Assembly (NCBI GenBank): GCA_963751455.1 | Contig: CAVVUN010000002.1 | Span: 96,001 to 160,000, forward strand | Length of the DNA: 64,000 nt | Reading direction: 5' to 3' | Origin: Nitrospirota bacterium | Lineage (GTDB): Bacteria; Nitrospirota; UBA9217 | In this document: one piece after another, positions 20,705-35,900 of the stretch | Position numbering within the stretch: the first letter of the stretch is position 1 | How the letters are laid out: the number at the start of each line of letters is the position of its first letter | Translations under genes and position numbers: made by a program | Notes under the pieces: model-generated | The model's input: the letters and a program-made list of their open reading frames with translations, nothing else | Database searches by the model: none | What the model was told of the DNA's origin: nothing

Positions 20705-20739
20705 TTGACATTTCCATAATAATATAATAATGTTTGCAT
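20705..20739 (+). promoter_or_regulatory. Sigma70 promoter (TTGACA-17-TAATGT) overlapped by a candidate ArsR operator
   Basis: TTGACA at 20705; AATATAATAATGTTTGCAT at 20721-20739 matches the reverse complement of 24971-24989 at 17/19 positions. Confidence 0.6.
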
Positions 20740-20786
20740 ATAATAAGCAGCTAAAAACTTCTCCTGAAAGGAATGGACAGTTAGGA

Positions 20787-21038
20787 ATGAAACTTCACGA
20801 CCCGATAAACATCATGCTTGACTGCTGCATCCCGGACAAAAAGAGACTAATGCTCGAGTTGAGCAAATTATCTCCTGGTGAAACGCTCAAAATCGAGGTA
20901 GATAACTGCGTCATGTCCAAGGCAATGGTAGAGGATTTCGTAAAAAACAAATGGTACAGCATTGTTCAGACCGTTGAGCGGGATGATTTCACCGTTTTGC
21001 ACATACAAGCCAAGACTATAGACACGAGCACAGTTTGA
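20787..21038 (+). CDS. TusA/SirA-like sulfur carrier
   Basis: 83 aa; CCIP at the CPxP position and L..LSPGETLKIEVDN pattern. Confidence 0.6.
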   Translation: MKLHDPINIMLDCCIPDKKRLMLELSKLSPGETLKIEVDNCVMSKAMVEDFVKNKWYSIVQTVERDDFTVLHIQAKTIDTSTV

Positions 21039-21063: not shown

Positions 21064-21405
21064 ATGATTCCCATAGAAAAAAGAATCGAACTGTTGAAGA
21101 TAATAGCACACCCTGTGCGGGTAAAAATTCTCGAAGACCTGACGAAGAGCGTGAAGTGCGTAAGCGATTTCGAGGAGTCGCTCGACATCAGCCAGCCGAA
21201 TGTGTCCCAGCACCTTTCACTGCTTCGCTCTCACGGCGTCATAGATTTTTATATTGACGGAAGGCTGAAGTGCTATTTCCTCAGGGAGCCGCTCATTCCC
21301 GATCTGCTCGAACTATTGAAGAAAGAATATGAAGAAGATGTTCCGGCGCCGGCATGCTGCCCGGTGACAAAAAAGGGAACTTATCCAGGCGAAAGGAGAC
21401 ATTAA
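21064..21405 (+). CDS. ArsR/SmtB-family repressor with C-terminal CC
   Basis: AHPVRVKIL and SQPNVSQHLSLLR HTH; Cys in KCV, KCY and PACCP. Confidence 0.88.
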   Translation: MIPIEKRIELLKIIAHPVRVKILEDLTKSVKCVSDFEESLDISQPNVSQHLSLLRSHGVIDFYIDGRLKCYFLREPLIPDLLELLKKEYEEDVPAPACCPVTKKGTYPGERRH

Positions 21406-21410
21406 GAAGG

Positions 21411-21695
21411 ATGAAGAAACACATGATCACACTCTATGTTAACGACCCTATGGGGAAACGCTGATTATCCAATACGGAAGCCGCCGGTCGGGCGGAAACG
21501 GAATTCGGCGCACAAATCGTAGTGATCAAGAAGACATCGAATGAGTACAGCCAAGAGAAAGACCCGCCTCCGTGCCCGTCAGTAATGGTGAACGGCAGGT
21601 TCATCGCCAGGAACGACACTATCAAGTATCAGGCGCTCAAGACGGCGCTCCTGAGCGACAGCGACATAGAGGAGACGGCGTCATTATCGCCGTAA
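21411..21695 (+). CDS. Small thioredoxin-like selenoprotein, NDPMGKRU motif (UGA at 21462-21464); absent from the ORF track
   Basis: 94 aa through the UGA; PCPSVMVNG cis-Pro-like motif; SECIS-like CCGCC-GGTCG-GGCGG at 21481-21495; paralog at 32645. Confidence 0.85.
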
Positions 21696-21776: not shown

Positions 21777-22133
21777 ATGTCGAAAACCGTTACTCTGTAT
21801 TTATCAACATCGCCGTATTCCTACGAGAACACCTTAACAAGTGCCCGCATTGCTGAATCGGCCTTGAACAAGGGCCATACCGTCAATCTCATTGCGTCGG
21901 CTGACGGTATCTATTGTTTCCTGACAAAACAGAAGGCGAAGGGCATACTGAATGCCGAGGAGGAATTTTCCCGGCTTATTCAAAAGGGGCTGAAGGTGTA
22001 CCTTTGAGGCGGGTGTCTCAACTTTCGCCGTGCGGCGAAAGACGATTACCTTGCAGGTTCTGAGGTCGGCTCCCTCAAGGGTTTGTTTGCAACCATGGGC
22101 GAGAGCGACGTCTGGATCAACGTCGGAGCATGA
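21777..22133 (+). CDS. DsrE/TusD-family sulfur relay protein with Sec (UxxC; UGA at 22005-22007)
   Basis: AAGGAGG RBS; SPY..ADGIY..VYL-U-GGCLNFR; readthrough gives the normal 118 aa length; hairpin TTTCGCC-GTGC-GGCGAAA at 22023-22040. Confidence 0.87.
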
Positions 22134-22175: not shown

Positions 22176-22529
22176 ATGGCTGCCATAGCAATGATTCTGA
22201 AGCGGTCGCCTTATGGCGACATCAACGCGGCCGAGGCCGTGCGGCACGCTCTCGGAGCCGTGTCAGGCGAATTGAGCGTGGACCTGATCCTGATGGACGG
22301 CGGAGTACTGCTTGCGAAGAAAGGACAGGACGACACCGGAACCGGCTTCACCAATCTCGAAGGCGCTCTCAAGGACTGCATCGACATGGGTGTAAGTGTG
22401 TATGCGGATGACTACTCCTTGAAGACCCAACGCGTAGGGCTGAGCGATGTGGTAGAGGGCGTAAAACCAGTCAGCGCCAAAAATATTGCGCAACTGGTGA
22501 ATGAGGCAAAATCGACGATGATATTTTGA
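22176..22529 (+). CDS. DsrF/TusC-like protein
   Basis: RSPYG..AEAVRHA..MDGGV..VYADDYSL pattern; AAGGAGG RBS; second gene of the trio. Confidence 0.8.
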   Translation: MAAIAMILKRSPYGDINAAEAVRHALGAVSGELSVDLILMDGGVLLAKKGQDDTGTGFTNLEGALKDCIDMGVSVYADDYSLKTQRVGLSDVVEGVKPVSAKNIAQLVNEAKSTMIF

Positions 22530-22541
22530 GAGGAGGCTGCT

Positions 22542-22823
22542 ATGCTCGTGATGATTAAAAGTGCACCCGACACGACGGATGGGGCGCTCGGCTTGACCCT
22601 TGCGAAGGAAGGCAGTGCTGATCTTGTCCTGCTGCAGAACGGAGTCTACTTTGCGCAAAAGGAACGACTCGGCGCTTTTTCCGGTGCGGTGTACGTCCTG
22701 GGTGACGACAAGAGGCTCCGAGGTCTCAAGGATTCAGAAATGGATGATCGCGCGAAGACCATTGACTACGACAAGCTGACGGACATTATTACCGGAGGAG
22801 AAAAGGTTGTGGGAATGTTTTAA
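22542..22823 (+). CDS. DsrH/TusB-like protein
   Basis: LLQNGVY..VYVLGDD..RGL..IDYDKL; 93 aa. Confidence 0.82.
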   Translation: MLVMIKSAPDTTDGALGLTLAKEGSADLVLLQNGVYFAQKERLGAFSGAVYVLGDDKRLRGLKDSEMDDRAKTIDYDKLTDIITGGEKVVGMF

Positions 22824-22900: not shown

Positions 22901-24091
22901 ATGGCAAGGATCGTTGTTTTAGGGGGATCGTTCGGGGGATTGACAGCGGCCTTTGAGCTGAAGCGGCTGCTCGGGAAGAAAGCGGATGTAACCGTAGTGA
23001 GCGACGATGACCGGTTCGTGTTCCTGCCGTCGCTGCCGTGGCTTATTATGGGGTGGAGAAGGCCGAAGGACATCACGCTCAAGGTCGGCGATATTTTGAA
23101 ACCGAAGGGGATCGCTTTCGTCCATGAAGCCGCGAAGCAGGTTGACGCCGACGCATCGAAGGTAATCACTTCTCAAGGCAAGGAGCTGCCTTACGATTTT
23201 CTCGTCATATCGACAGGTCCGCATCTCTCCTTCGATGAAATTCCGGGACTGGGCCCGGACAAAGGGCATACGGACTGTACCTTTACACTCGACCATGCGG
23301 TAAAGACGGGTGAAACATGGAAAAAAATTCTTGAGAACCCTGGTCCGATCGTCGTCGGATCATCGCAGATGGTGAGCTGCTTCGGCCCATCCTATGAACT
23401 TGCCTTTGAAATGGATGCCGAGCTTCGGCGTCGCAAGATGCGCCACAAGGTCCCCATCATCTATCTCACGTCGGAGCCTTACCTCGGCCATATGGGCGTC
23501 GGCGGTCTCGGCAAATCAAAAACGTTCATGGAAAACGAGTTTGCCGAACGTGATATCAAGCCGTTTATTAACCAGGCAATTCAGGAAGTGGCGCCCGGAG
23601 AGATACGGCTCAAGGACGGAAACAAAATTCCCTTCAAGCTCGCGATGATTGCCCCGCCGTTCAAGGGCGTGCCCGCCGTCATGCCGCTCGGAAATCCGCG
23701 CGGGTTCATCCCGGTTGATAAAAACTACCGTCACATGAAACACAAGAATATTTTTGCCATAGGCGTTGCAATGGCCATTGCACCGCCGGAAGCTACTCCG
23801 GTGCCGACCGGCGTGCCGAAGACCGGATTCATGACCGTAAAGATGGCAAAGATCGCTGCGGCGACTGTCGCCTCGGATATTACCGGCAAGCCAGCGCCTT
23901 TGGCTGATGAACTCGGCGTGGTCTGTCTCATGGACATGGGAAACACAGCCGCGTTCATGAAAGCGTATCCAGTACTGCCTCCCCGGCAGAGTTCGTATAT
24001 GAAAAAGACGATCTGGGCAAAATGGATGAAGGTCAGGTTCGAGAAATATTTCCTGTGGAAAATGAAGAGGGGGCTTACGAATCTGCCATGA
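22901..24091 (+). CDS. sqr: Sulfide:quinone oxidoreductase-family flavoprotein
   Basis: GGSFGG Rossmann motif; SCFGPSYE, VPKTG and VCLMDMG carry the two catalytic Cys; amphipathic C-terminal FEKYFLWK. Confidence 0.8.
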   Translation: MARIVVLGGSFGGLTAAFELKRLLGKKADVTVVSDDDRFVFLPSLPWLIMGWRRPKDITLKVGDILKPKGIAFVHEAAKQVDADASKVITSQGKELPYDFLVISTGPHLSFDEIPGLGPDKGHTDCTFTLDHAVKTGETWKKILENPGPIVVGSSQMVSCFGPSYELAFEMDAELRRRKMRHKVPIIYLTSEPYLGHMGVGGLGKSKTFMENEFAERDIKPFINQAIQEVAPGEIRLKDGNKIPFKLAMIAPPFKGVPAVMPLGNPRGFIPVDKNYRHMKHKNIFAIGVAMAIAPPEATPVPTGVPKTGFMTVKMAKIAAATVASDITGKPAPLADELGVVCLMDMGNTAAFMKAYPVLPPRQSSYMKKTIWAKWMKVRFEKYFLWKMKRGLTNLP

Positions 24092-24492
24092 AAAAAGAGC
24101 TATTGAAGCTGCATGCTGATTTTTGCAAGATATTTTCAAATGCCATGCGGCTTGAAATACTCTGCCTGCTAAAGACAGGAGAGCTGACAGTCGGCGAGAT
24201 CACCGGGAAGCTTGAAATTTCAAAGGCGAATACGTCCCAGCATCTGGCCCTCATGCGCATGACGCGTATTCTGACAACGAGAAGAAAAGGCAATAATGTT
24301 TATTATGGAATCGCCAATAAAAAAATCTGCCGGGCATGCAGCCTGATGCAGGAAGGCCTGGAACAGCTTTATGGAGATGATACGACCCCACCCCGCAACT
24401 CCCCCCTTGCCAAGGGGGGATTAAGGGAGGTGTTAAAGGAGGGACAATATGACGAAGATAGTAAAAAATGTATCGATCATGTGCTTCCATGA
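24088..24492 (+). CDS. ArsR-family repressor (BigR/SqrR-like Cys in RLEILC); tail extended by a palindromic repeat
   Basis: HTH ANTSQHLALMR; Cys in helix 2 and ICRAC; ATGA overlap with sqr. Confidence 0.8.
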   Translation: MKKELLKLHADFCKIFSNAMRLEILCLLKTGELTVGEITGKLEISKANTSQHLALMRMTRILTTRRKGNNVYYGIANKKICRACSLMQEGLEQLYGDDTTPPRNSPLAKGGLREVLKEGQYDEDSKKCIDHVLP

Positions 24493-24871
24493 CGAGCTCT
24501 GCCAGGTTTACAATGCGCTCATGACTGCATTGAGCATCCTCAGGGAAGGCTCAAAAGTCACGATGTTTTTCGGATCTCGCGGAATCAACGCGGTCCACAA
24601 GGATAAGGTGAAGGACCTCAAGTGTCTGCCGGACCAGCCCAAGGAAGAAGGCGATGCAGTGATGAAAAAAATGGAGGAAATGGAACTGCCGACAGTCGAG
24701 GACCTCTTCTTCATGCTAATCGCAGAAGGGGGGGCGGTCCTCGCCTGCCCGCTGAACGTCTCCCTGTTCAATATTACTGCGGGGCAGTTGATCGACGGCG
24801 TCAAGGTGGCGGATCCTGCGAAGTACTATAAAGAAATCATGATTCCTGCGGATATGAACCTGACTTTTTAG
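24449..24871 (+). CDS. DsrE2/DsrE-like sulfur transferase
   Basis: VTMFFGSRG..ELPTVEDL..VLACP pattern; AGGAGG RBS. Confidence 0.72.
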   Translation: MTKIVKNVSIMCFHDELCQVYNALMTALSILREGSKVTMFFGSRGINAVHKDKVKDLKCLPDQPKEEGDAVMKKMEEMELPTVEDLFFMLIAEGGAVLACPLNVSLFNITAGQLIDGVKVADPAKYYKEIMIPADMNLTF

Positions 24872-24970
24872 ATGGGCTCTTGCAAAAGTCCACGCGACCC
24901 GGACCTTACTCTTCTGCGGTATGATAAAAAGTGACTTTTGCAAGAGACGCAATATTTTTTTCACCGATAC

Positions 24971-24989
24971 ATGCAAGTATTATTATATT
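24971..24989. promoter_or_regulatory. Second copy (inverted) of the candidate ArsR operator, upstream of the MMPL gene
   Basis: ATGCAAGTATTATTATATT; 17/19 identity to the reverse complement of 20721-20739. Confidence 0.55.
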
Positions 24990-25011
24990 TCTATGTATAG
25001 AGGGGGAGTAC

Positions 25012-28000
25012 ATGCGTAAATTTTCTTTAGTCGAATTTTCAGTCGACCATCCCAAGCTCATTGTCGTCCTGTCGATCATTCTTACCGTCGTCTTCATGAC
25101 CCAGTTCCCAAAAGTGAGGACGGACACGAACCCCAAGAACATGCTGCCGCCTACGTCTGCCGTCCGGGTCGGGAACGATGAAATCGAAAAGACCTTCGGC
25201 CTGTATGAGGACATGATCGTCCTCGGAATCCAGAACGAAAAGGGCATCCTGAATACGGACACCCTCGGCAAAATTCAGCGGATCACCGATGAGACCCTGA
25301 AGATCAAAGGCGTTGCGGCCCGGGACGTATCGAGCTTCACGACCATTGATAACGTCACAGTTGAGGGTGAGACGTTAATGGTGAGCCCGCTCATGACCGC
25401 GGTGCCGAAGACGGATAAAGAGCTGTCCGTCATGAGGAAGGCCCTCTTCGAGAATCCGCTCTTCATCGACCGCATCATATCGAAAGACGGCAAAACCACG
25501 GCTATCTATGTCCCTCTCGAAAAGGGCTCAAACGGAAAAGAGGTCGCGGACAAAATTCGGGAGCTCGTCAGGAAAGAGAAGGGCGACGAAAAATACTATG
25601 TTGCCGGCGATCCCGTGGCAAGGGACACCTTCGGAGCGGACATGTTCAAGCTCATGGCCGTATTCGCGCCCATAGCCGGGATGGTCATGCTGATCGTTAG
25701 ATTTCTCATGTTCAAGGACCTGTTCCTCTCAATCACGCTGATGATGGACGCCATGATCAGCATCGTATGGAGCATGGGACTCCTGATCGCTCTCGGATTT
25801 CCCATCCACATCATGAGCTCCATGGCCCCCGTGTTCCTGATGGCAATCGCAACGGACAGCATGCACATTTTTAACGAGTTCTACTTCCGGTTCCGTGAGA
25901 AGAAAGACAAGCGGGCTGCGATCATCGCCACCATGCAGGCGGTCAGCCGTCCGGTCCGGAATACCGCCCTTGCAACCGCAGCTGGTTTCGCCGTGCTATT
26001 GTTCATGAACATCATCCCGGTCAAGGTTTTCGGCGGACTTGTCGCGTTCGGGACGATAGCCCTTCGTGTCCTGAGCTTCAGCTTCATTCCCGCGATGTTC
26101 ATGTTCGTGAAGGAGGAAAAGATCGAGAAAATAGCGCGATCAGAGGACGCTGAAGCAGGCGGTTCGGTCTTCCTGAAGAAACTGGCCGGGCTCGGTATCC
26201 GCAAACCCCTGACAACCGTTCTTGTCGGGATCGTGCTGATCGTAGCCGCCATCATCGGCATTTCAAAAACGATCGTAAACAACAATATGGTGGAGTGGTT
26301 CAAAAAGGGCAGCGAAGTGCGAGTCGCCGACACGGTCATGAACAAGGCCCTGGGCGGGACATCTCTGGGCTATATCGTGGCTATCTCCGACAAGGACGAC
26401 TACATTAAAACGCCGGAAGCCATGCGATTTATCGAAGGACTTCAACGCCGCCTGGAGAAACTGCCGGTTGTCGGAAAGACTACTTCGGTTGTTGACTATG
26501 TCAAGAGGATCAACCGAGTGCTCCATAACGACAACCCCAAATTCGACGCAGTCCCCGGGACAAAGGAGATGATCGGCCAGTATCTGTTCCTTTTCTCCAT
26601 GTCGGCGAAGCCGTCCGATCTCGACAACGTCGCTGACTATCCCTTCCGCAAAGCCAATATCTGGGTGCAGCTAAAGACCTGGGATGCAAAGGCCATGGAA
26701 TCGGTAATCGCAGAAGTCAATGCATTCAAAAAGGAGAACCCGACCCCGATGGAATTCAAGCCTGCCGGGATTGCCTACTTCAACCTGGTCTGGAACCATG
26801 AAGTTCTTTGGGACATGGTAAAAGGCCTTGTTTTGGCACTCATTGTCGTATTTGCTATCCTTGCATACGATTTCCGGTCCATCAAATGGGCTGTTATCGG
26901 GTATATCCCGCTCCTGTTCACGATCCTGCTCATTTATGGGGTCATCGGTTATATCGGCAAGGATTTTGACATGCCCATCTCGGTCATGAGCTGCCTCTCC
27001 CTCGGCATGGCCGTGGATTTTGCCATCCACTTTGTGAGCAGGTTCAGGCAGCGACTGAAAGAAATTCAGGGAACGGGCGACGCGAAACAACATATAACAG
27101 ATGCCTTACTCTGGACTGCAGCTCGTCCGGGGAAGGGTATCATGCGGAACGCCATCCTGTTCGCCGCGGCTTTCGCGGTAATGCTCTTTGCTCCGCTGAC
27201 GCCGTATGTCACGGTAGGCGCCTTCATCGTGAGCATGATGATGCTGAGCGCTCTTATGACGATACTCTATTTGCCCGCCCTCATAACATTGCTGCGGGGC
27301 TGGCTCTTCCAGGGAGGTACTGACGTGAAACGTGTTGCTGCAACAGCAATTGTTCTGGCATTTGCGATATTTACATCGGCAGCGGCTGCCGCGGACAGCG
27401 GAACGGATATCATGAAAAAATCCCAGGCTGCTTTTCTTTATTCAGGCAAGGACTTCAAGGCCCGCATTCAGATGAAGCTGATCACTCAGAGCGGGCAGGA
27501 GCGGCTTCGGGAGCTGACGATGCTCAGAAAGAATTTCGGCGAGCCGGGCGGCGAGCAGAAGTACTTCATGTATTTCTTTCTGCCGGCGGATGTCAAGGAC
27601 ATGACCTTCATGGTCCACAAGCACCCCGGCAGGGACGCGGACCGCTGGCTGTTCGTGCCGGCGATCAGCATGGTCAGGCGGATCGCGGCCAGGGACAAGA
27701 GCTCAAGCTTCGTAGGCTCAGATTTTTCCTATGAAGACGTTTCAGGGAGAAATATTGACGACGATACGCACGTCCTGGTGAAGGAAGAAAAGCTCGACAC
27801 CAAAGATTGTTATGTGGTCAAGAGCACGCCCAAAGCTGCAGATGTGGATTACTCGTACAAAATGTCCTGGATCGACAAAGGCACTCATCTGCCGCTCAAG
27901 GAAGAGTACTATGACAGAAAGGGCGATCTTTACAAAGTCTTTACAGCGAATGAGATCAAAACGATAAAGGGATTTCCTACTATTACGAAGCGTACTATGA

Positions 28001-28125
28001 AGAATGCTTTGAGCGGACACCGCACGGATGTTACTTTCCTTAAGGCTGATTATGACCTGGGGATCGACGACAATCTTTTCTCTGAACGTTTTCTGAAACA
28101 GCCTCCCAAGAGGTGGATTGAATGA
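25012..28125 (+). CDS. MMPL/RND-family transporter in frame with a LolA-like outer-membrane lipoprotein-sorting domain (internal start at 27325)
   Basis: Two MMPL repeats (IATDSMH, GMAVDFAIH), then FVGSDFSYED and D.DRWLFVPA..VRRI LolA-like motifs. Confidence 0.8.
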   Translation: MRKFSLVEFSVDHPKLIVVLSIILTVVFMTQFPKVRTDTNPKNMLPPTSAVRVGNDEIEKTFGLYEDMIVLGIQNEKGILNTDTLGKIQRITDETLKIKGVAARDVSSFTTIDNVTVEGETLMVSPLMTAVPKTDKELSVMRKALFENPLFIDRIISKDGKTTAIYVPLEKGSNGKEVADKIRELVRKEKGDEKYYVAGDPVARDTFGADMFKLMAVFAPIAGMVMLIVRFLMFKDLFLSITLMMDAMISIVWSMGLLIALGFPIHIMSSMAPVFLMAIATDSMHIFNEFYFRFREKKDKRAAIIATMQAVSRPVRNTALATAAGFAVLLFMNIIPVKVFGGLVAFGTIALRVLSFSFIPAMFMFVKEEKIEKIARSEDAEAGGSVFLKKLAGLGIRKPLTTVLVGIVLIVAAIIGISKTIVNNNMVEWFKKGSEVRVADTVMNKALGGTSLGYIVAISDKDDYIKTPEAMRFIEGLQRRLEKLPVVGKTTSVVDYVKRINRVLHNDNPKFDAVPGTKEMIGQYLFLFSMSAKPSDLDNVADYPFRKANIWVQLKTWDAKAMESVIAEVNAFKKENPTPMEFKPAGIAYFNLVWNHEVLWDMVKGLVLALIVVFAILAYDFRSIKWAVIGYIPLLFTILLIYGVIGYIGKDFDMPISVMSCLSLGMAVDFAIHFVSRFRQRLKEIQGTGDAKQHITDALLWTAARPGKGIMRNAILFAAAFAVMLFAPLTPYVTVGAFIVSMMMLSALMTILYLPALITLLRGWLFQGGTDVKRVAATAIVLAFAIFTSAAAAADSGTDIMKKSQAAFLYSGKDFKARIQMKLITQSGQERLRELTMLRKNFGEPGGEQKYFMYFFLPADVKDMTFMVHKHPGRDADRWLFVPAISMVRRIAARDKSSSFVGSDFSYEDVSGRNIDDDTHVLVKEEKLDTKDCYVVKSTPKAADVDYSYKMSWIDKGTHLPLKEEYYDRKGDLYKVFTANEIKTIKGFPTITKRTMKNALSGHRTDVTFLKADYDLGIDDNLFSERFLKQPPKRWIE

Positions 28126-29414
28126 GGAAGTTCAAGACAGTAGGGCACAGATGTCAGATGACAGACTGGATCGGACTGTTTGTTTTTAGTCTGTGCTCTC
28201 TCTTCTGCGTCCTGATTTCTTCATCAGTGTTTGCAGCCGATTTTTCTTTTCACGGTTTCGCGCAGGGCAATTATTCGAGGGATACGGGTGCGGACAATCC
28301 TGACGGCAAGGAATTGAAATGGTCCGAGGAGCGGGTCCAGCTTAAGTTCGAAGCCTCGCAGGACCCGTTCCGGCTGTTTATCAAAGAAGACGTTTTTTAC
28401 GATCATCTCGATAGGGAAGCCCATGCCGAACTGCGCGAGGGTTATGCCGACTATGCCGCCGGGACGTGGGATGCTCGCGCCGGAAGGCAGATTATCACTT
28501 GGGGCCTTGGGGACCTCTTGTTCATCAACGATGTTTTTCCCAAGGACTACGAGGCGTTTTTTTCCGGCAGGCCGCTTGAATACCTCAAGAAGGGCGTTGA
28601 CGCAGTCAAAATCGGGGCCTATCCTGGCTTTGTATCTGCGGAATTTGTCCTGATTCCGATTTTCGAGCCCAACACGTTTCCTGATCCCAACCGCTTCTCA
28701 ATGTTCGATCCCTTGTCAGGCGTTACGAACAGGGCAGAGCAAAAACCGGCTTCGACCGCCGAAAACAGCGAAGTTGCGCTGCGGCTCTATCGCGACGTGA
28801 TGGGGCTCGACGGTTCCCTCTATTTCTATAAAGGATATTTCCGGCAGCCTTCAGTCCTGCCCGATAACCCAATGGCTCCGACAAAGCTCACGTTCTTTTA
28901 CCCGAAACTGAACGTCTATGGCGCAAGCCTGCAGGGAAGGGCCGTGGATGGCGTGGTGAGCCTGGAAGCCGGGTATTATGATTCAAGAGAGGACCAGTCC
29001 GGCAATAATCCCATGATCCCGAATTCCCAGACGCGGTATCTCCTGGGCTATCAAAGGCAGTTCTGGGAGGATTTCACGCTGGGCCTCCAGTACTACGGCG
29101 AGTACATGCAGGATTACGGAGAATACGGACAGAGCCTGCCTGCCGGGTTCCCTATGGACAAGCGCCTGCATCAGCTCGCAACGATCAGACTCATGCAATT
29201 TTTGAGGCACCAGACGTTGAGGCTTTCCTTCTTCGCGTTTTACGGGATTTCCGACAGGGATTACCTGATCAATCCCGAAATAAAATATAACTTCACGGAC
29301 TCTATCTGGTTTGCTCTCGGAGGCAATTTCTTCGGCGGGGAAAAACCCTGGACGCAGTTTGGACAACTGGCGAATAATGACAATGTCTATACTCAGGTAA
29401 GATATGAGTTCTAA
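28122..29414 (+). CDS. Outer-membrane beta-barrel protein (DUF1302-like partner of MMPL/LolA-like modules)
   Basis: Signal peptide; LREGYADY..RAGRQIITWG; C-terminal QVRYEF. Confidence 0.7.
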   Translation: MRKFKTVGHRCQMTDWIGLFVFSLCSLFCVLISSSVFAADFSFHGFAQGNYSRDTGADNPDGKELKWSEERVQLKFEASQDPFRLFIKEDVFYDHLDREAHAELREGYADYAAGTWDARAGRQIITWGLGDLLFINDVFPKDYEAFFSGRPLEYLKKGVDAVKIGAYPGFVSAEFVLIPIFEPNTFPDPNRFSMFDPLSGVTNRAEQKPASTAENSEVALRLYRDVMGLDGSLYFYKGYFRQPSVLPDNPMAPTKLTFFYPKLNVYGASLQGRAVDGVVSLEAGYYDSREDQSGNNPMIPNSQTRYLLGYQRQFWEDFTLGLQYYGEYMQDYGEYGQSLPAGFPMDKRLHQLATIRLMQFLRHQTLRLSFFAFYGISDRDYLINPEIKYNFTDSIWFALGGNFFGGEKPWTQFGQLANNDNVYTQVRYEF

Positions 29415-29456
29415 AAGTTCAGGATATTTCTCGGTACGGCTTATTTGGGAGCATTC

Positions 29457-30857
29457 ATGTCAGTAAAACTTACGATCATCGGCGCGGGGCCTGGCGGTTA
29501 TGTCGCCGCGATCCGCGCTGCGCAGAAAGGCGCGCACGTTACCGTTGTTGAAGACACGGAAGTGGGCGGAACCTGCCTGAACAGGGGATGCATCCCGACC
29601 AAGACGCTCATCGCCTCTGCTGAGGCGCTCAATCTGGTACGCCGGGCCGCTGACTACGGCGTCGATCTTCCAGGCGAAGCCGGATACAACCTCGCCAGGA
29701 TCCGGGAGCGAAAGGACAAGGTTGTCTCCCTGCAGGTGAAGGGCATTCGCGGGCTGTTCAAAAGCTGGGGAGTGACGGTCATCGAAGGCCGCGGCTCGCT
29801 CCTGTCTTCCGATACGGTAAGGGTCACCGGGAAAGACGGCGCGTCCGTGGACGTCAAGTCCGATAAGATAATCATTGCCACTGGTTCGAGCCCCGTAAAA
29901 TTTGCCGGTTTTCCTTTTGACGGAGAGAGCGTCATCACGAGCGACGAGGCAATCCAGCTCAAAAAAATCCCGAAGAGCCTGCTCATCGTCGGCGCAGGAG
30001 TCATCGGGTCCGAGTTCGCGTTCATCTACCGAAGCTTCGGAGCTGTGGTGTCGATCGTCGAAATGATGCCGCGCGCGCTTTCGACGGAAGACGAAGACAT
30101 GGCGGACATTATCGAGCGGGAATTCAAGAAGTCAGGAATCAAGCTTCAGACCAACGTGAAGATCGAGAACGTCGAGAAAGACCCGGAGGGCATGATCGTC
30201 GCAAAACTCTCGAACGGCCGCGAAATCCGTGCGGAGATGGTTCTTGTATCCATCGGCCGCGGCATGAACTCCGGGAACCTCGGTCTTGATGCCGTCGGAG
30301 TCGCGACGGGGAAGCGCGGGGAGATCATCGTGAATGACAGGATGGAAACTACGGCTCCGGGCGTCTACGCCGTCGGAGACGTTACCGGCAAGATCCTGCT
30401 TGCCCATGTCGCTTCGCAACAGGGACTTGTCGCCGTTGAGAACGCTCTCGGCAATGCAGAAACAATGGACTACACGGTTGTCCCGTCCGGCGTCTTCACC
30501 ATGCCCGAAATCGGCAGCGTCGGCTTACGGGAGCATGAGGCCCGAGAGAAAGGGATCAAGTACCATGTCGGCCGGTTCCCTTACCGTGCGCTCGGCAAGG
30601 CCCACGCCATGGGGGAGATCACCGGCATGGTTAAGGTGCTGTCCGATGCTGAATCGGACAAAGTCCTCGGGGTCCATATCTGCGGCGCTCACGCAACGGA
30701 CATGATCCATGAAGGCGCGCTTGCCATTCAAACGGGAACGACCGCTAAAAAGCTGGGGCAAATGATCCACGCCCATCCCACCCTTGCCGAGGCAGTCATG
30801 GAGGCGGCAGAGGACACGCATGGGTGCGCGATTCATATACCGAAGACGGCCAAGTGA
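29457..30857 (+). CDS. lpdA: Dihydrolipoyl dehydrogenase
   Basis: GAGPGGY, GGTCLNRGCIPTK and HAHPTLAE motifs. Confidence 0.92.
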   Translation: MSVKLTIIGAGPGGYVAAIRAAQKGAHVTVVEDTEVGGTCLNRGCIPTKTLIASAEALNLVRRAADYGVDLPGEAGYNLARIRERKDKVVSLQVKGIRGLFKSWGVTVIEGRGSLLSSDTVRVTGKDGASVDVKSDKIIIATGSSPVKFAGFPFDGESVITSDEAIQLKKIPKSLLIVGAGVIGSEFAFIYRSFGAVVSIVEMMPRALSTEDEDMADIIEREFKKSGIKLQTNVKIENVEKDPEGMIVAKLSNGREIRAEMVLVSIGRGMNSGNLGLDAVGVATGKRGEIIVNDRMETTAPGVYAVGDVTGKILLAHVASQQGLVAVENALGNAETMDYTVVPSGVFTMPEIGSVGLREHEAREKGIKYHVGRFPYRALGKAHAMGEITGMVKVLSDAESDKVLGVHICGAHATDMIHEGALAIQTGTTAKKLGQMIHAHPTLAEAVMEAAEDTHGCAIHIPKTAK

Positions 30858-30928: not shown

Positions 30929-31420
30929 TCAAGCCCTGTAAGCATACAGCATACCGGTTAATAAGAGCACTGTAATGCCCATAAAAAAGTTGATTTTCAC
31001 CAGATTCAGGGATACTGTTTGCAGCTTCTGAACTTTTTCAGGATGGCCTCCTTCCGACGACAACCGTGCTATCCCTGGTGTCAGGACCAACCCTCGGTAA
31101 AAATGAATGCACGTCATTATTACTACGAACAGAATCTTTGCAACAAGCGATCTCACCCGCAGGGCGGAAAGTCCGGGGAAACCGGTAAAATCATGCGAAG
31201 CGACACTCATGAAGATTCCGCTTGCGATGATCAGAAAAATGCTGATATTTGCCAGCGGAACAAAGCGTTTGCTCAGAGGTCCCATGATTTTACCTGGTTG
31301 GTCAAGGGTCTTCCCCGCAACCGGGATGGCAACATACAAAATAAAAAAAATTCCGCCTATCCAGACAACTGCCGATAACAGATGCACCCACATAGTTACC
31401 GTCAACAATAATCGGTCCAT
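30929..31420 (-). CDS. CopD/DUF4149-like four-helix membrane protein
   Basis: WVHLLSAVVWIGGIFF motif; four hydrophobic segments. Confidence 0.7.
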   Translation of the reverse strand: MDRLLLTVTMWVHLLSAVVWIGGIFFILYVAIPVAGKTLDQPGKIMGPLSKRFVPLANISIFLIIASGIFMSVASHDFTGFPGLSALRVRSLVAKILFVVIMTCIHFYRGLVLTPGIARLSSEGGHPEKVQKLQTVSLNLVKINFFMGITVLLLTGMLYAYRA

Positions 31421-31438
31421 TTCATAAACCTCCTGTAG

Positions 31439-31474
31439 AATTTCGTGGGGAGAATTCCTCCCCCCACGAAATTT
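31439..31474. terminator. Stem-loop between the Cys peptide gene and the copD-like gene (terminator or mRNA stabiliser)
   Basis: AATTTCGTGGGG...CCCCACGAAATT inverted repeat. Confidence 0.6.
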
Positions 31475-31480
31475 TGCCGC

Positions 31481-31594
31481 CTACTTCTTCTCCTTCATAG
31501 GTGGAACGCACCCGCAACCGCAGCCGCAGCTTGATGCCTTGGTCTCCTTTTCAACTTTCTCAGCGGTTGCGTTTTTTTCGGTCGTATCTGCCAT
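31481..31594 (-). CDS. 37-aa peptide with a CGCGCGC motif (unannotated)
   Basis: AAGGAGGT RBS; MADTTEKNATAEKVEKETKASSCGCGCGCVPPMKEKK; hairpin directly after the stop. Confidence 0.7.
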   Translation of the reverse strand: MADTTEKNATAEKVEKETKASSCGCGCGCVPPMKEKK

Positions 31595-31793
31595 CACAGT
31601 CACCTCCTTCCGCGGCGATAGCCGTTGATTTCAGATTTTTGGTGTTCATTATAAGTTCGGATTCCAGGTCTTTTTTATATTCCCTTAATCGTATGAGCAG
31701 TTCTTTTTTACTAAAAGGTTTATCGTCAATTTTTGGTTCGCCTTTGCACGGATTTTTCAACTTAATGAATTCACTCCCCTGACACATACGCAA
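31560..31793 (-). CDS. Small hypothetical protein resembling the coiled-coil tail of the adjacent ArsR
   Basis: AAGGAG RBS; LREYKKDLESEL versus LLEYRKRLESEL in the ArsR. Confidence 0.45.
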   Translation of the reverse strand: MRMCQGSEFIKLKNPCKGEPKIDDKPFSKKELLIRLREYKKDLESELIMNTKNLKSTAIAAEGGDCDGRYDRKKRNR

Positions 31794-31813
31794 CTGACTC
31801 CTTTATTAAGTTA

Positions 31814-31832
31814 ATTAGCATCAACTTATATA
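31814..31832. promoter_or_regulatory. Candidate operator ATTAG-N5-ACTTATATA (copy 1)
   Basis: Same motif at 32263-32281; both lie just upstream of minus-strand gene starts. Confidence 0.55.
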
Positions 31833-31854
31833 ATTAAGAAAAAAATATTTCTCT

Positions 31855-32250
31855 TCACTTTCTCTCAAGTTCTGAAATTCTCTTTTTAACCTGTTTCAGC
31901 TCGCTCTCAAGGCGTTTTCTATACTCAAGCAAAACTTCTTTTGGATCGGAGGCCCTTTTTTTCTTGCCGAGTTCACATCCGCACGTACAGATTTTTATCA
32001 GTTCATGCTGGCATTTGTCGAGGCTTGCTTCGTTCAACGAATAGAAAATATGATATCCTTTCCTCTCATCCATAACCAGGCCAGCCTGTTTTAATACACG
32101 GAGATGTTGCGAAACGGCGGATTGGGTGATCCCCAGTGCCTCGGCCATTATATTAACAGACAAGGGACCTGCCTTGAGTAGTTCTATAATTTTTATTCTG
32201 GTTTCTACTGAGAAAACCTTAAATGCTTCCGCTTCAATTTTCACATTCAC
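31855..32250 (-). CDS. ArsR/SmtB repressor with CTCGC motif and coiled-coil tail
   Basis: ETRIKIIELL and ITQSAVSQHLRVLK HTH. Confidence 0.88.
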   Translation of the reverse strand: MNVKIEAEAFKVFSVETRIKIIELLKAGPLSVNIMAEALGITQSAVSQHLRVLKQAGLVMDERKGYHIFYSLNEASLDKCQHELIKICTCGCELGKKKRASDPKEVLLEYRKRLESELKQVKKRISELERK

Positions 32251-32302: not shown

Positions 32303-32644
32303 GTGGTTTTTTCAAGCACGTAACGCACATAAGACTATTATGTATCAATAATGTTTTTCAAAAAATTACGAGGCGTTTTTTTCGGGCAGGCCAATGGAAT
32401 ACAAAAAGGCGTTGACTGCGCAAATGTATCCGTGTTTCGCTTCCTTCGAGTTCGCCAGCACACCTTCTCCATAGGCTGCCGAGATTCCGCGAGGAGAAGT
32501 GGCATCCATCTCCGCGGTTTCCAGGTTACACCATTTGTCGGCTCAAGTAGAGGTTACCCTCCTAAGTATTCATTGACTTTTACATAAAAGGAATATTAAC
32601 ATTCCAGCAGGCATCCTGTGCACCCAGGGCTAAAGGAGGCAATC

Positions 32645-32899
32645 ATGAAAAAGCGGACAATTACGATGTACATGAACGACCCGATGGGCAAGTGGTGAAT
32701 TTCGCTGATGGAGTCCGCCGGTCGGGCGGAGAAGGAGTTGGGCGCTGAAGTCGTTGTGATCAAGAAGACGTCCCCGGAATACGCATCGGAAAAGGACGCA
32801 CCTCCCTGTCCATCGGTAAAGATTGATGATTCTTTTGTTGTTAAGAGGGGCTTGGTCACCTATGATCAGCTTAAGGCCGCTGTATTAAAAGAGGACTAG
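32645..32899 (+). CDS. Second thioredoxin-like selenoprotein, NDPMGKWU motif (UGA at 32696-32698)
   Basis: AAGGAGG RBS before ATG 32645; 84 aa; hairpin TCCGCC-GGTCG-GGCGGA at 32714-32730; homologous to 21411-21695 on both sides of the UGA. Confidence 0.88.
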
Positions 32900-33063
32900 C
32901 AACCAGCTGAAAAACTCGAGAGCGTCATAGAGTGTCATTAAGAGGAGCTATCGTTGTGACGTGGCGATCTCGATTTTTGAAGTCGTTATGTAACTGCAGA
33001 TTGCTTCCTTCGCTCGCAAAGACGGCTCAAAAAAGTTTACACGTGTTTCATGAGGCAAATCGG

Positions 33064-33711
33064 ATGAACTTTAAAAAACTCAATATGCACGAATTAAACG
33101 TTCTGAATCAGAAGCGGTACGCAATCACTGCCTGGTTTTACGATATCCTGGACTACCCCTGGGAGCTTCAATACCGGAAATGGAGACCCGAGCTTCTGGG
33201 GGATTTGAGCGGAAAAGTGCTGGAAGCGGGGGTCGGGACCGGGCGAAACCTGGAATACTACCGCCCCGGAGTGAACTTGACCGCAATCGATTTCAGCCCC
33301 GCCATGCTGAAGAAGGCAGCGAAACGCTGCGCGAAAACATCCTGTAAGGTTGAGTTCGTGCATGAAGATGCCACGCATATGGAATCAATCCCTTCAGCGA
33401 GCTATGATTGGGTAGTGGCTTTTTTTCTTTGCTGCGTCCTTCCCAATGAGCTGCAGGATGAGGCGGTCTCGGAGTTCGCGCGCGTGCTGAAGCCGGGCGG
33501 CAGATTCCGGCTTCTGGAAATGAAATATTCCAAGGACCCCGTCCTGAGAAAGCGTCAGGATTTTTTTGCGCCGTTTGTCGCAAAGGTGTACGGCGCCGGG
33601 TTTGACCGGGAAACATTGAGACATATTCAATATAATAAGAAACTTAAGGTGACAGGAACCCGCTATCTGAAACACGACACGTATCTGTTGATCGATGGTA
33701 TCCGGGAGTAA
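33064..33711 (+). CDS. Class I SAM-dependent methyltransferase
   Basis: VLEAGVGTGRN, IDFSPAML and RVLKPGG motifs; FLCC. Confidence 0.85.
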   Translation: MNFKKLNMHELNVLNQKRYAITAWFYDILDYPWELQYRKWRPELLGDLSGKVLEAGVGTGRNLEYYRPGVNLTAIDFSPAMLKKAAKRCAKTSCKVEFVHEDATHMESIPSASYDWVVAFFLCCVLPNELQDEAVSEFARVLKPGGRFRLLEMKYSKDPVLRKRQDFFAPFVAKVYGAGFDRETLRHIQYNKKLKVTGTRYLKHDTYLLIDGIRE

Positions 33712-33949: not shown

Positions 33950-34997
33950 ATGGAAATAAAACTCACACACCTTTCAAGCTGCGCCGGTTGAGCCTCTAAA
34001 TTCAGCCCTGCTGATCTGTCCCAGGTCCTGGGACAATTACCGAAAATCATCGATCCCAATGTACTCGTCGGTTCCTCGAATGCCGATGATGCGGGTGTAT
34101 ACCGCATCACCGACGAAATTGCCATGGTCTTTACCGCCGACTTTTTTACGCCGATCGTCGACGACCCGTACTGGTTCGGCGCCATCGCCGCGGCGAACTC
34201 GCTCTCGGATGTTTATGCCATGGGCGGCAAGGCCCTGGTTGCCTTGAACATCGCGGCACTGCCCGGCACGCCTGATTTTGCGGAGATCAACAAGCGGATC
34301 ATGCAGGGCGGCATCGATAAAATGAATGAGGCCGGAGTGGCGATCATCGGCGGACATACCATCAAGGACAAGGAGCCGAAATTCGGATTTGCCGTTCTCG
34401 GCTCTATCCATCCCGGTAAAATACTCGATAATACCAAGGCGAAACCGGGTGATGCGCTGATTATCACGAAGCCCATCGGGACAGGGATCATTGCAACCGG
34501 AATCAAAGCCGGAAAATGCAGCCGTCGAAACAGCTGACCTCTTCACGAAGTCCATGGCAACCCTCAATAAACGGGCAAGCGAGATTATGCTCGAGGCAGG
34601 CGTGAACACGGCCACGGACATTACCGGGTTCGGCCTGATCGGTCATCTGAGCGAAGTTCTTATAGCGAGCAGGTGCAGCGCGCGGCTGTACGCAAGCAGT
34701 GTCCCGTTTTTCAAGGAAGCGATAACGCTCGCGGACATGGGCATGGTTCCGGGCGGTACACGGGCCAACCTGAAGAACTATGAATCGATCGTGGAATGGG
34801 CATCAGGTGTTTCAAATACCGAACGGTTTTTGATGAATGACGCTCAGACCTCGGGCGGGCTTCTTCTATTCGTTTCGAAGGGTAATAAAAAAAGGCTGGT
34901 GTCCGCGCTTCTTAAGGATAACATCATGGCCGCAGAAATAGGTGCACTGGTTGATACTGCTCCCATCGGGGATAAACGGATATTTGTGGAGAAATGA
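33950..34997 (+). CDS. selD: Selenide, water dikinase, Sec form (UGA at 33989-33991); one apparent indel near 34520
   Basis: LTHLSSCAG-U-ASK, DDAGVY, DFFTPIVDDP, DVYAMGG, TDITGFGL and DAQTSGGLL motifs; hairpin TGTCCCA-GGTCC-TGGGACA at 34017-34035. Confidence 0.92.
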
Positions 34998-35120: not shown

Positions 35121-35900
35121 ATGGATATCCCTTTTGTGCTGTTTCTGGCTGCGATCGGCGGGTCTGTCGGATTTCTTTCAGGCCTGCTCGGCATAGGCGG
35201 AGGCATTGTCATGTTTCCGCTGCTGCTGTATGTACCGCCCCTCCTCGGCTGGAACAGCATTGACGTAAAGAGCATTACCGGTCTCACCATGGCCCAAGGC
35301 TTCTTCTCCGCCCTTACCGCGATGTTCTATTACAGCAAAAATGCGCTTGTCAACAAAGCACTCGTAGTAACGCTCGGCCTTTCCTTGTTTACTTCCTCGC
35401 TTGCCGGCTCGTTCTTTTCGAAGACTGTTCCGGACGGCCTCCTGCTCATGGTCTTCGGAACTTTGGCGCTCATCGCCGCGGTGATGATGCTCATACCGAG
35501 AAGTTATATGCGTGATGATCTGACCGAGGACAAGGTGTATTTTCATAAAGCGACCGCCATCGCTATCGGCCTCCTTCTGGGGTTCGCTATTGGCCTGGTC
35601 GGCCAGGGCGGCGCGTTCATCCTCATCCCGACGCTTCTCTATGTCTTGAAGATCCCGCTCAGGGTCGCGCTGGGAAGCACGCTGGCAATCGGGCTCTTTT
35701 CGTCGTCAGCCGGCCTGGTCGGCAAGGTGGCGACTCACCAGGTGCCGTTTCTCCTGGTCCTTCCGCTTCTGGCGGGCGCTGTTCCGGCTGCACGGTGGGG
35801 GAGCATGGTCGGGAAAAGAACTAATACCATTTTTTTGAAGTGGCTTCTCTCGGCGATCATCTTCGGGACGGCAATCAAAGTCTGGATCGATATTATATGA
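35121..35900 (+). CDS. TauE/SafE (TSUP) sulfite/sulfur-compound exporter
   Basis: GLLGIGGG and GLVGQGGAFILIP repeats; eight TM helices. Confidence 0.88.
   Translation: MDIPFVLFLAAIGGSVGFLSGLLGIGGGIVMFPLLLYVPPLLGWNSIDVKSITGLTMAQGFFSALTAMFYYSKNALVNKALVVTLGLSLFTSSLAGSFFSKTVPDGLLLMVFGTLALIAAVMMLIPRSYMRDDLTEDKVYFHKATAIAIGLLLGFAIGLVGQGGAFILIPTLLYVLKIPLRVALGSTLAIGLFSSSAGLVGKVATHQVPFLLVLPLLAGAVPAARWGSMVGKRTNTIFLKWLLSAIIFGTAIKVWIDII

Follow-up and report, generated by a model that had tools for sequence, protein, structure and literature searches.

The window, the whole 64,000-nucleotide stretch of DNA analysed here, carries two paralogous TsoC-like genes on its plus strand, each with a single in-frame TGA that falls at codon 18. 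Copy 1 (21411..21695, 94 aa) reads NDPMGKR-U18 and has its putative selenocysteine (Sec) codon at 21462..21464, a position occupied by Cys in orthologs, while copy 2 (32645..32899, 84 aa) reads NDPMGKW-U18 with the corresponding codon at 32696..32698. Purine-rich stretches resembling Shine-Dalgarno sequences lie 5' of both ATGs, GAAAGGAGA for the first and AAAGGAGG for the second. The homology proposed in the initial annotation, including the shared position of the TGA, was borne out by an ungapped BLASTP alignment with U read as C (47/83 identical residues, 57%, E 5e-37), which spans both flanks of the TGA. That annotation was also right in placing the only Cys in the PCP motif: C55, within PCPS and followed by P56, is the sole Cys of each protein. 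It occupies the cisPro-1 position (codon 21573..21575, +, in copy 1), where it may be the partner thiol of U18. These two are the only copies found by tblastn in the 5.7 Mb host genome. Since they belong to different subclades of a 69-sequence tree, a recent duplication was rejected; copy 2 clusters with NDPMGKW-U genes from three other genomes, in two of which the same methyltransferase lies downstream.

The genes around copy 1 share its strand. An ArsR/SmtB repressor with conserved cysteines in KCV, LKCYF and PACCP (21064..21405, +) ends 5 nt before it, and beyond it lie a DsrE-like selenoprotein with the motif YL-U77-GGC (21777..22133, +; TGA at 22005-22007 with a strong hairpin, z -2.9), DsrF/TusC-like (22176..22529, +) and DsrH/TusB-like (22542..22823, +) subunits, and an SQR-like flavoprotein (22901..24091, +) whose best NCBIfam match, type III SQR, scores 105 bits against a cut-off of 525. 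The DsrE-like selenoprotein was overlooked by standard ORF calling. A second ArsR-family repressor follows (24088..24492, +), with FCK and AC cysteines kept in most relatives; its identification as BigR-like is not secure (53.9 bits against 155, the Cys at the BigR position being lost in relatives). Next come a DsrE2-like protein (24449..24871, +; PF13686) and a block at 24931..29414 (+) that comprises an MMPL/RND-LolA-like fusion and a 430-aa ORF without a Pfam or NCBIfam match, for which an outer membrane protein is a guess. On the 3' side of copy 2 are a class I SAM methyltransferase (33061..33711, +; best match PmtA-like, under cut-off), the canonical SelD (33950..34997, +) and a TauE/SafE membrane protein (35121..35900, +).

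Several further frames were noted in the window. A frame 5' of the first ArsR gene (20730-21038, +) looks TusA-like by eye, has no Pfam or NCBIfam match and was seen elsewhere only at locus L082. Directly after the operon, a dihydrolipoyl dehydrogenase that scores over cut-off (29445-30857, +) is a possible electron source and is not a conserved neighbour. The minus-strand block at 30929-32250, repeated at locus L102, contains a divergent ArsR with a C-terminal CTCGC, a short Cys-rich frame and a CopD-like gene. Immediately 5' of copy 2, a degenerate piece of the 28122-29414 gene (32352-32465, +) suggests a past rearrangement of the operon. A promoter scan was uninformative: it gave 22 sites where 13.2 would be expected.

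A search with copy 2 gave matches in 23 of 61 genomes (the host included), nearly all with one TGA, and a profile of 29 sequences matched in 75 of 401 Nitrospirota genomes, a count in which the few weakest matches are probably ordinary thioredoxins; the named relatives are Nitrospirota MAGs. Among the matching database proteins, 63 of 64 begin downstream of the UGA, as they should if the UGA were a true stop and translation began at a later Met, and a broken SelD in the host assembly (see below) would fit such a reading. However, the start codon, the frame 5' of the TGA and the N-x-P-x-G motif are conserved in every genomic copy displayed, copy 1 has no Met from U18 to M59, and Cys orthologs of full length exist. 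Because the genomic DNA retains the frame upstream, the post-UGA starts are best read as gene-caller truncations. The initial annotation had named homologs starting after the UGA, or carrying a residue other than Cys there, as evidence that would count against Sec, and this was not what the upstream frames and the full-length homologs gave: residue 18 is Cys in 36 of the 37 full-length database homologs, and the one Trp (1/37) comes from another clade.

SelA was found in none of nine genomes of family f3, whose copies lack the TGA and which are related to each other, so that they do not count as nine independent events, versus 6/6 TGA-type genomes. Five genomes of family f18 have SelA despite TGA-less matches; two of these matches were read, and both are Cys-type proteins from a different clade. 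One Cys form, P0004, is nested among TGA genes in the tree and is likely a reversion from Sec to Cys.

Both genes have a candidate bacterial SECIS hairpin 3' of the UGA, at 21481..21495 (+) in copy 1 (5 bp stem) and at 32714..32730 (+) in copy 2 (6 bp stem), with a GGUCG loop at +22 in each. The copies share the 15-mer CCGCC-GGTCG-GGCGG (32715-32729 in copy 2), which begins 17 bases past the TGA and places the first loop base at +22. With energies of -9.1 and -11.0 kcal/mol, a 5 nt loop, a stem of 5-6 bp and a spacing of 21 nt, both hairpins agree with the bacterial consensus as set out in PMC13188914 (loop of 3-9 nt, stem of 4-16 bp, spacing of 16-37 nt, a G within the first two loop bases and an MFE of at most -7.5). 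The hairpin and its loop position thus stand as first annotated, whereas the weight then given to the internal replicate does not: the 15-mer also encodes the conserved residues A/S-A-G-R-A, so its identity between the copies is weaker evidence for a hairpin. Covariation across 30 TGA homologs is the stronger evidence. In their alignment 98.7% of cells are paired, pair 21-33 (wobble-wobble) occurs as C-G, A-U, U-A and U-G with seven changes on both sides, and the covariation score was reached by 0 of 500 shuffles, with slid controls far lower; the structure having been derived from these same related sequences, we take the score as support rather than as a probability. Folding of the whole region was not unusual against dinucleotide shuffles of the window copies (z 0.09 and -0.92), and reliance was therefore placed on covariation. 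The best hairpin lies at +22 or +23 in 39 of 40 TGA genes of the clade to which the window copies belong (hereafter the PCP clade), a fair hairpin lies near the same place in 2 of 6 Cys-type genes, and the two other clades of the family have theirs at +18 and +25, the latter being the canonical TsoC position. Three clades with three SECIS registers offer a small, convenient series for work on SECIS placement in bacteria.

The host genome encodes SelA and SelB, both over cut-off, and two tRNA-Sec. Its only canonical SelD (CAG-U14), 1 kb 3' of copy 2, is interrupted near 34522, where one base has been inserted; three more genes of the assembly, out of no more than 63 tested, are likewise broken, so this break may be an assembly indel. 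In genome G216, SelD carries another indel, 17 bases from the host's insertion site. Given the retained upstream frames, the covariation of the hairpin and this reading of the SelD break, we regard a true stop at codon 18 as hardly credible; the UGA of both copies is almost certainly read as Sec. Other observations concern the wider selenium inventory of the host. The second tRNA-Sec is on a 9 kb contig (C13), together with LysR and a TusA/YedF-like gene named by eye, and this contig may be contamination. The minus strand of contig C1 contains a DsbA-like stretch, DYQ-U-PYC, that is a probable further selenoprotein. Stand-alone ArsM-like selenoproteins of about 247 aa with the motif WSQ-U-IGG occur at L079:13545-14285 and L006:8346-9089 and also on host contig C15; they score under the cut-offs of the fused double-Sec models. 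A motif hunt for more selenoproteins across the genome returned mostly noise.

The resemblance to TsoC suggested in the initial annotation proved to be real. TsoC is the NEPxGxxU motif selenoprotein of NCBIfam NF045708 (Haft and Tolstoy 2025, cited in PMC13188914), and this model was the only NCBIfam match of the two proteins, just under its cut-off of 45 with 42.3 (copy 1) and 44.5 bits (copy 2). On this basis the copies belong to a divergent sister clade of TsoC, at the margin of the described family, and not to a new family. The tree (FastTree, midpoint root, 69 sequences; the frameshifted L033 and L098 omitted, and L110 outside it because the motif pattern missed it) separates a canonical NEPxGxxU...AP group (115-130 bits to NF045708, 4/4 over cut-off), an LPKFP-type group (54-80 bits, 7/7 over cut-off) and the PCP clade with the window copies (33.4-49.2 bits, 5/29 reaching 45; support about 0.85). 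Like TsoC, the window proteins have N-x-P-x-G-x-x-U at the same place, are of the same size and match along the whole length of the profile (2-83 of 87); unlike it, they have NDP, a Cys at cisPro-1 where the canonical form has Ala, and the SECIS loop at +22 rather than +25. The motifs NDPMGKRU and NDPMGKWU thus keep the GxxU part and depart from the literal NEPxGxxU; NEP occurs in two members of the PCP clade. As far as their sequences can tell, both copies combine an in-frame UGA with Cys-containing homologs, as expected of TsoC. The joint assignment as selenoproteins of a TsoC sister clade, taken alone, is one we make with great confidence.

The Tso operon (mentioned in PMC13188914) comprises TsoA, TsoB, TsoX and TsoR besides TsoC. 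None of these four was over cut-off in the host genome, in searches run without a passing positive-control genome, and none was seen adjoining copy 1 or copy 2. Neither window protein matched Pfam; of 29 aligned members, 7 matched Thioredoxin_3, whose clusters also supplied the Atlas look-alikes. MTH895/ArsE (TIGR00412, PDB 1ILO) shares the small thioredoxin fold and gave the best PDB sequence match (E 0.029), but has CxxC where the PCP clade has GxxU and a cisPro-1 Cys; relatives score 16-31 bits to TIGR00412 against a cut-off of 62, and the window proteins did not match it. SelW/Rdx proteins (PF10262) likewise carry Sec at the second position of their CxxU motif, but their Cys lies three residues before Sec, where G15 stands in 29/29 PCP-clade members, none of which matched the Rdx model. 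The arsenic-binding CCxxGxC loop of ArsD is absent from the window proteins, and hhalign to ArsD gave a probability of 19.5% over only 31 C-terminal columns, with an ArsD profile of two sequences. P0089 and P0095 were discarded as repeat-protein noise, and the two matches of a search for fusions in longer proteins look chimeric or frameshifted. One Cys homolog, P0085, is fused to DUF5714. Two family members (PCP plus LPKFP, or tandem canonical) occur at each of L076, L078, L079, L080 and L081, which suggests that the clades have distinct roles.

An AlphaFold2 model (pLDDT 85.9) has thioredoxin topology, with elements E5-10, H16-32, E35-40, E57-60, E63-67 and H73-90, and contains the beta-alpha-beta / beta-beta-alpha core and the Pro preceding the third strand that define the fold. 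Its best structural matches are thioredoxins (Z 10.0, rmsd 1.9, 80-82 residues aligned); Foldseek gave no match at E 0.001 or better, with thioredoxins heading its list and ArsD at rank 23. Weak profile alignments (MTH895, the archaeal MTH807-type thioredoxin 1NHO, DsbA) suggest a register of the active site in which U18 falls on the second Cys of CxxC, G15 on the first and C55-P56 on the LP/VP motif. In thioredoxin I75T the cisPro-1 side chain is 3.4 A from the sulfur of the first Cys, and reduced I75C air-oxidises too rapidly to titrate, as reported by Ren et al. (PMC2665069). Given this register and these data, C55 should lie beside U18, about where the absent first Cys sulfur would be; as the CxxC loop offers Gly and Sec in place of its two cysteines, C55 is positioned as the partner of U18. 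Conservation of C55 is high, at 35 of 36 Cys homologs of full length and 79 of 82 fragments. A U18-C55 selenenylsulfide is therefore plausible; it would be long-range in sequence only and, if true, an unusual layout for a thioredoxin active site. In CxxC sites the second residue is usually buried and acts as the resolving one, so either U18 or C55 may attack first.

Sec is present in canonical TsoC and in the LPKFP clade although their cisPro-1 residue is Ala, Phe or Leu, and P0070, P0080 and P0150 have neither the Cys of C55 nor the cis-Pro, so C55 is dispensable for the family as a whole. The PCP proteins could thus be single-selenol catalysts like the members of these two related clades, with C55 merely tuning the selenolate and forming no bond with U18; tuning by the cisPro-1 residue is known (PMC2665069; compare Thr in DsbC and DsbG). 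A pure hydrogen-bond role would nevertheless suit Ser or Thr, neither of which was printed as a substitute in our searches for this near-invariant residue, and Gly at the first CxxC position leaves space for C55. We consider tuning alone unlikely, though deserving of some weight.

To place the genes in context we surveyed 53 family genes from the window and 46 loci chosen from match lists, a non-random sample with some short contigs. Around the 29 TGA-type PCP genes, at distances of up to 7 kb, we found ArsR in 24 cases (directly upstream in 20), TauE in 17, DsrE in 17, DsrF in 16, DsrH in 16, SQR-like genes in 15, DsrE2 in 14, MMPL in 10, SelD in 9 and a methyltransferase in 7. The gene usually stands after a PACCP-type ArsR and ahead of TauE, Sec-DsrE/F/H, SelD or an SQR-like gene. 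All 18 distinct DsrE neighbours scored have a TGA in a UxxC motif. DsrE/F/H or SQR was found near none of seven Cys-type genes, some of which adjoin TauE, YeeE-like or other DsrE-like genes. The DsrEFH/SQR/SelD context that the initial annotation pointed to is real, but it does not set the clade apart as had been proposed, since canonical NEPxGxxU members in Nitrospirota adjoin DsrE2 and MMPL too.

The association is not obligate. A match to Sec-DsrE, nearly always with a single TGA, occurs in 85 of 301 genomes of the phylum. Of 20 DsrE loci taken from genomes without a linked copy, none holds a family member, though most retain ArsR-DsrEFH-SQR. Conversely, family f3 has the gene in 10/12 genomes and a match to the window-type DsrE in 0/12. 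An obligate DsrEFH partnership was rejected on these two counts, and since the operon often lacks the gene, the TsoC-like gene is accessory. In 4 of the 20 gene-lacking operons (L122, L123, L129 and L130) a CxxC DsrE-like gene fills the slot between ArsR and Sec-DsrE, and remnants of such a slot gene were seen at L120, L131, L132, L137 and L138. DsrC is the textbook acceptor of DsrEFH; it is encoded elsewhere in the host genome and was present in 5/5 genomes tested, which weakens the idea that the TsoC-like protein replaces it. No partner reductase was seen as a conserved neighbour, and no natural all-Cys pair of TsoC-like protein and DsrE was found.

Taken together, the TsoC-like protein is likely a persulfide acceptor or reductase in an accessory role. 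In the scheme we propose, the U18 selenolate would attack either a polysulfide or a persulfidated protein, such as a DsrE-type carrier that has received sulfur from the SQR-like enzyme; C55 would resolve the sulfur adduct on U18 to give a U18-C55 selenenylsulfide, freeing sulfide or handing the sulfur onward; and some cellular reductase would reset the bond. The protein would be an optional helper of the ArsR-headed operon rather than a fixed subunit. Thioredoxins are known depersulfidases, such as S. aureus TrxP under sulfide stress (PMC11763069). We give the whole chain, a selenol-thiol persulfide catalyst cycling through U18-C55 and serving the sulfur-trafficking neighbours, a little less than an even chance. 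A relocation of the redox pair away from the CxxC loop, so that U18 works with the cisPro-1 C55, in a persulfide-resolving helper of a Sec-upgraded sulfide operon is put forward more tentatively, as possible rather than probable.

Two other roles would account for parts of the same neighbourhood. U18 and C55 might carry selenium derived from selenide or selenite to SelD, which would make the operon one of selenium uptake and sorting and not of sulfide detoxification. Nine loci have SelD (CAGU) within 7 kb, the only SelD found in those genomes. Among the neighbours of the family genes are TauE and YeeE/YedE-like transporters; E. coli TrxA is important for selenoprotein synthesis (PMC8538045) and YedE/YedF have been proposed as selenium-handling genes (PMC9312934). 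Yet SelD is missing from the 7 kb around 20 of the 29 loci; eight genomes with SelD linkage had been picked for that known link, and of 16 other TGA-type genomes only 3 have SelD within about 11 kb of a copy; and the Cys orthologs of family f3 keep C55 though SelA (0/9) and SelD (0/4) were not found there. We judge a selenium carrier distinctly unlikely. The alternative of a metalloid or metal chaperone for As(III) or Hg, of the ArsD/ArsE kind, in which U18 and C55 pass the ion to an exporter or methyltransferase, draws on the C-terminal CC pair of the upstream ArsR, on the ArsM-like selenoproteins at some loci and on the nearest structured sequence relatives, which are of the MTH895/ArsE type, besides the Foldseek rank of ArsD. 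In some ArsRs a C-terminal CC pair binds arsenic. The same ArsR, however, also heads DsrE-SQR operons without the TsoC-like gene, sulfur-carrier neighbours far exceed arsenic genes (ArsM-like in 2/29), and the ArsD profile match is the short C-terminal one given above; a metal chaperone therefore appears quite improbable.

What deserves attention is the cisPro-1 cysteine, together with a context that suggests substrates; the family itself is already known. TsoC was recently named; a limited literature search gave no function for it, met it only in the review PMC13188914 and showed a GxxU plus cisPro-1 Cys site in no paper. With the PCP clade the family reaches dozens of Nitrospirota genomes, in whose public annotations the protein is truncated to the part after the UGA and listed as hypothetical. 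Its natural Cys orthologs (about 83 residues) can be expressed without Sec machinery, and the context of ArsR, TauE, DsrEFH, SQR-like and SelD genes points to substrates worth testing; if the relocated pair and the persulfide helper are real, this would be a direct functional test for an uncharacterised family. Sec-TsoC-like, Sec-DsrE and Sec-SelD would together make a selenium-upgraded sulfide-handling operon.

Finally, the operon as a whole resembles known reactive-sulfur systems, namely SQR/TauE/ArsR detoxification regulons and DsrE relays. The FisR/BigR persulfide-detoxification regulons of A. baumannii, as described in PMC7315123, have SQR, PDO, TauE and YeeE, and share with the PCP loci ArsR-family repressors accompanied by SQR-like, TauE/YeeE and DsrE-type genes; persulfide dioxygenase was not among the frequent annotated neighbours of the PCP genes. 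The DsrEFH relay of A. vinosum, in the account given in PMC11094781, is like the PCP loci in its DsrE-type components. From both systems the PCP loci differ in having Sec in DsrE and an optional TsoC-like selenoprotein.
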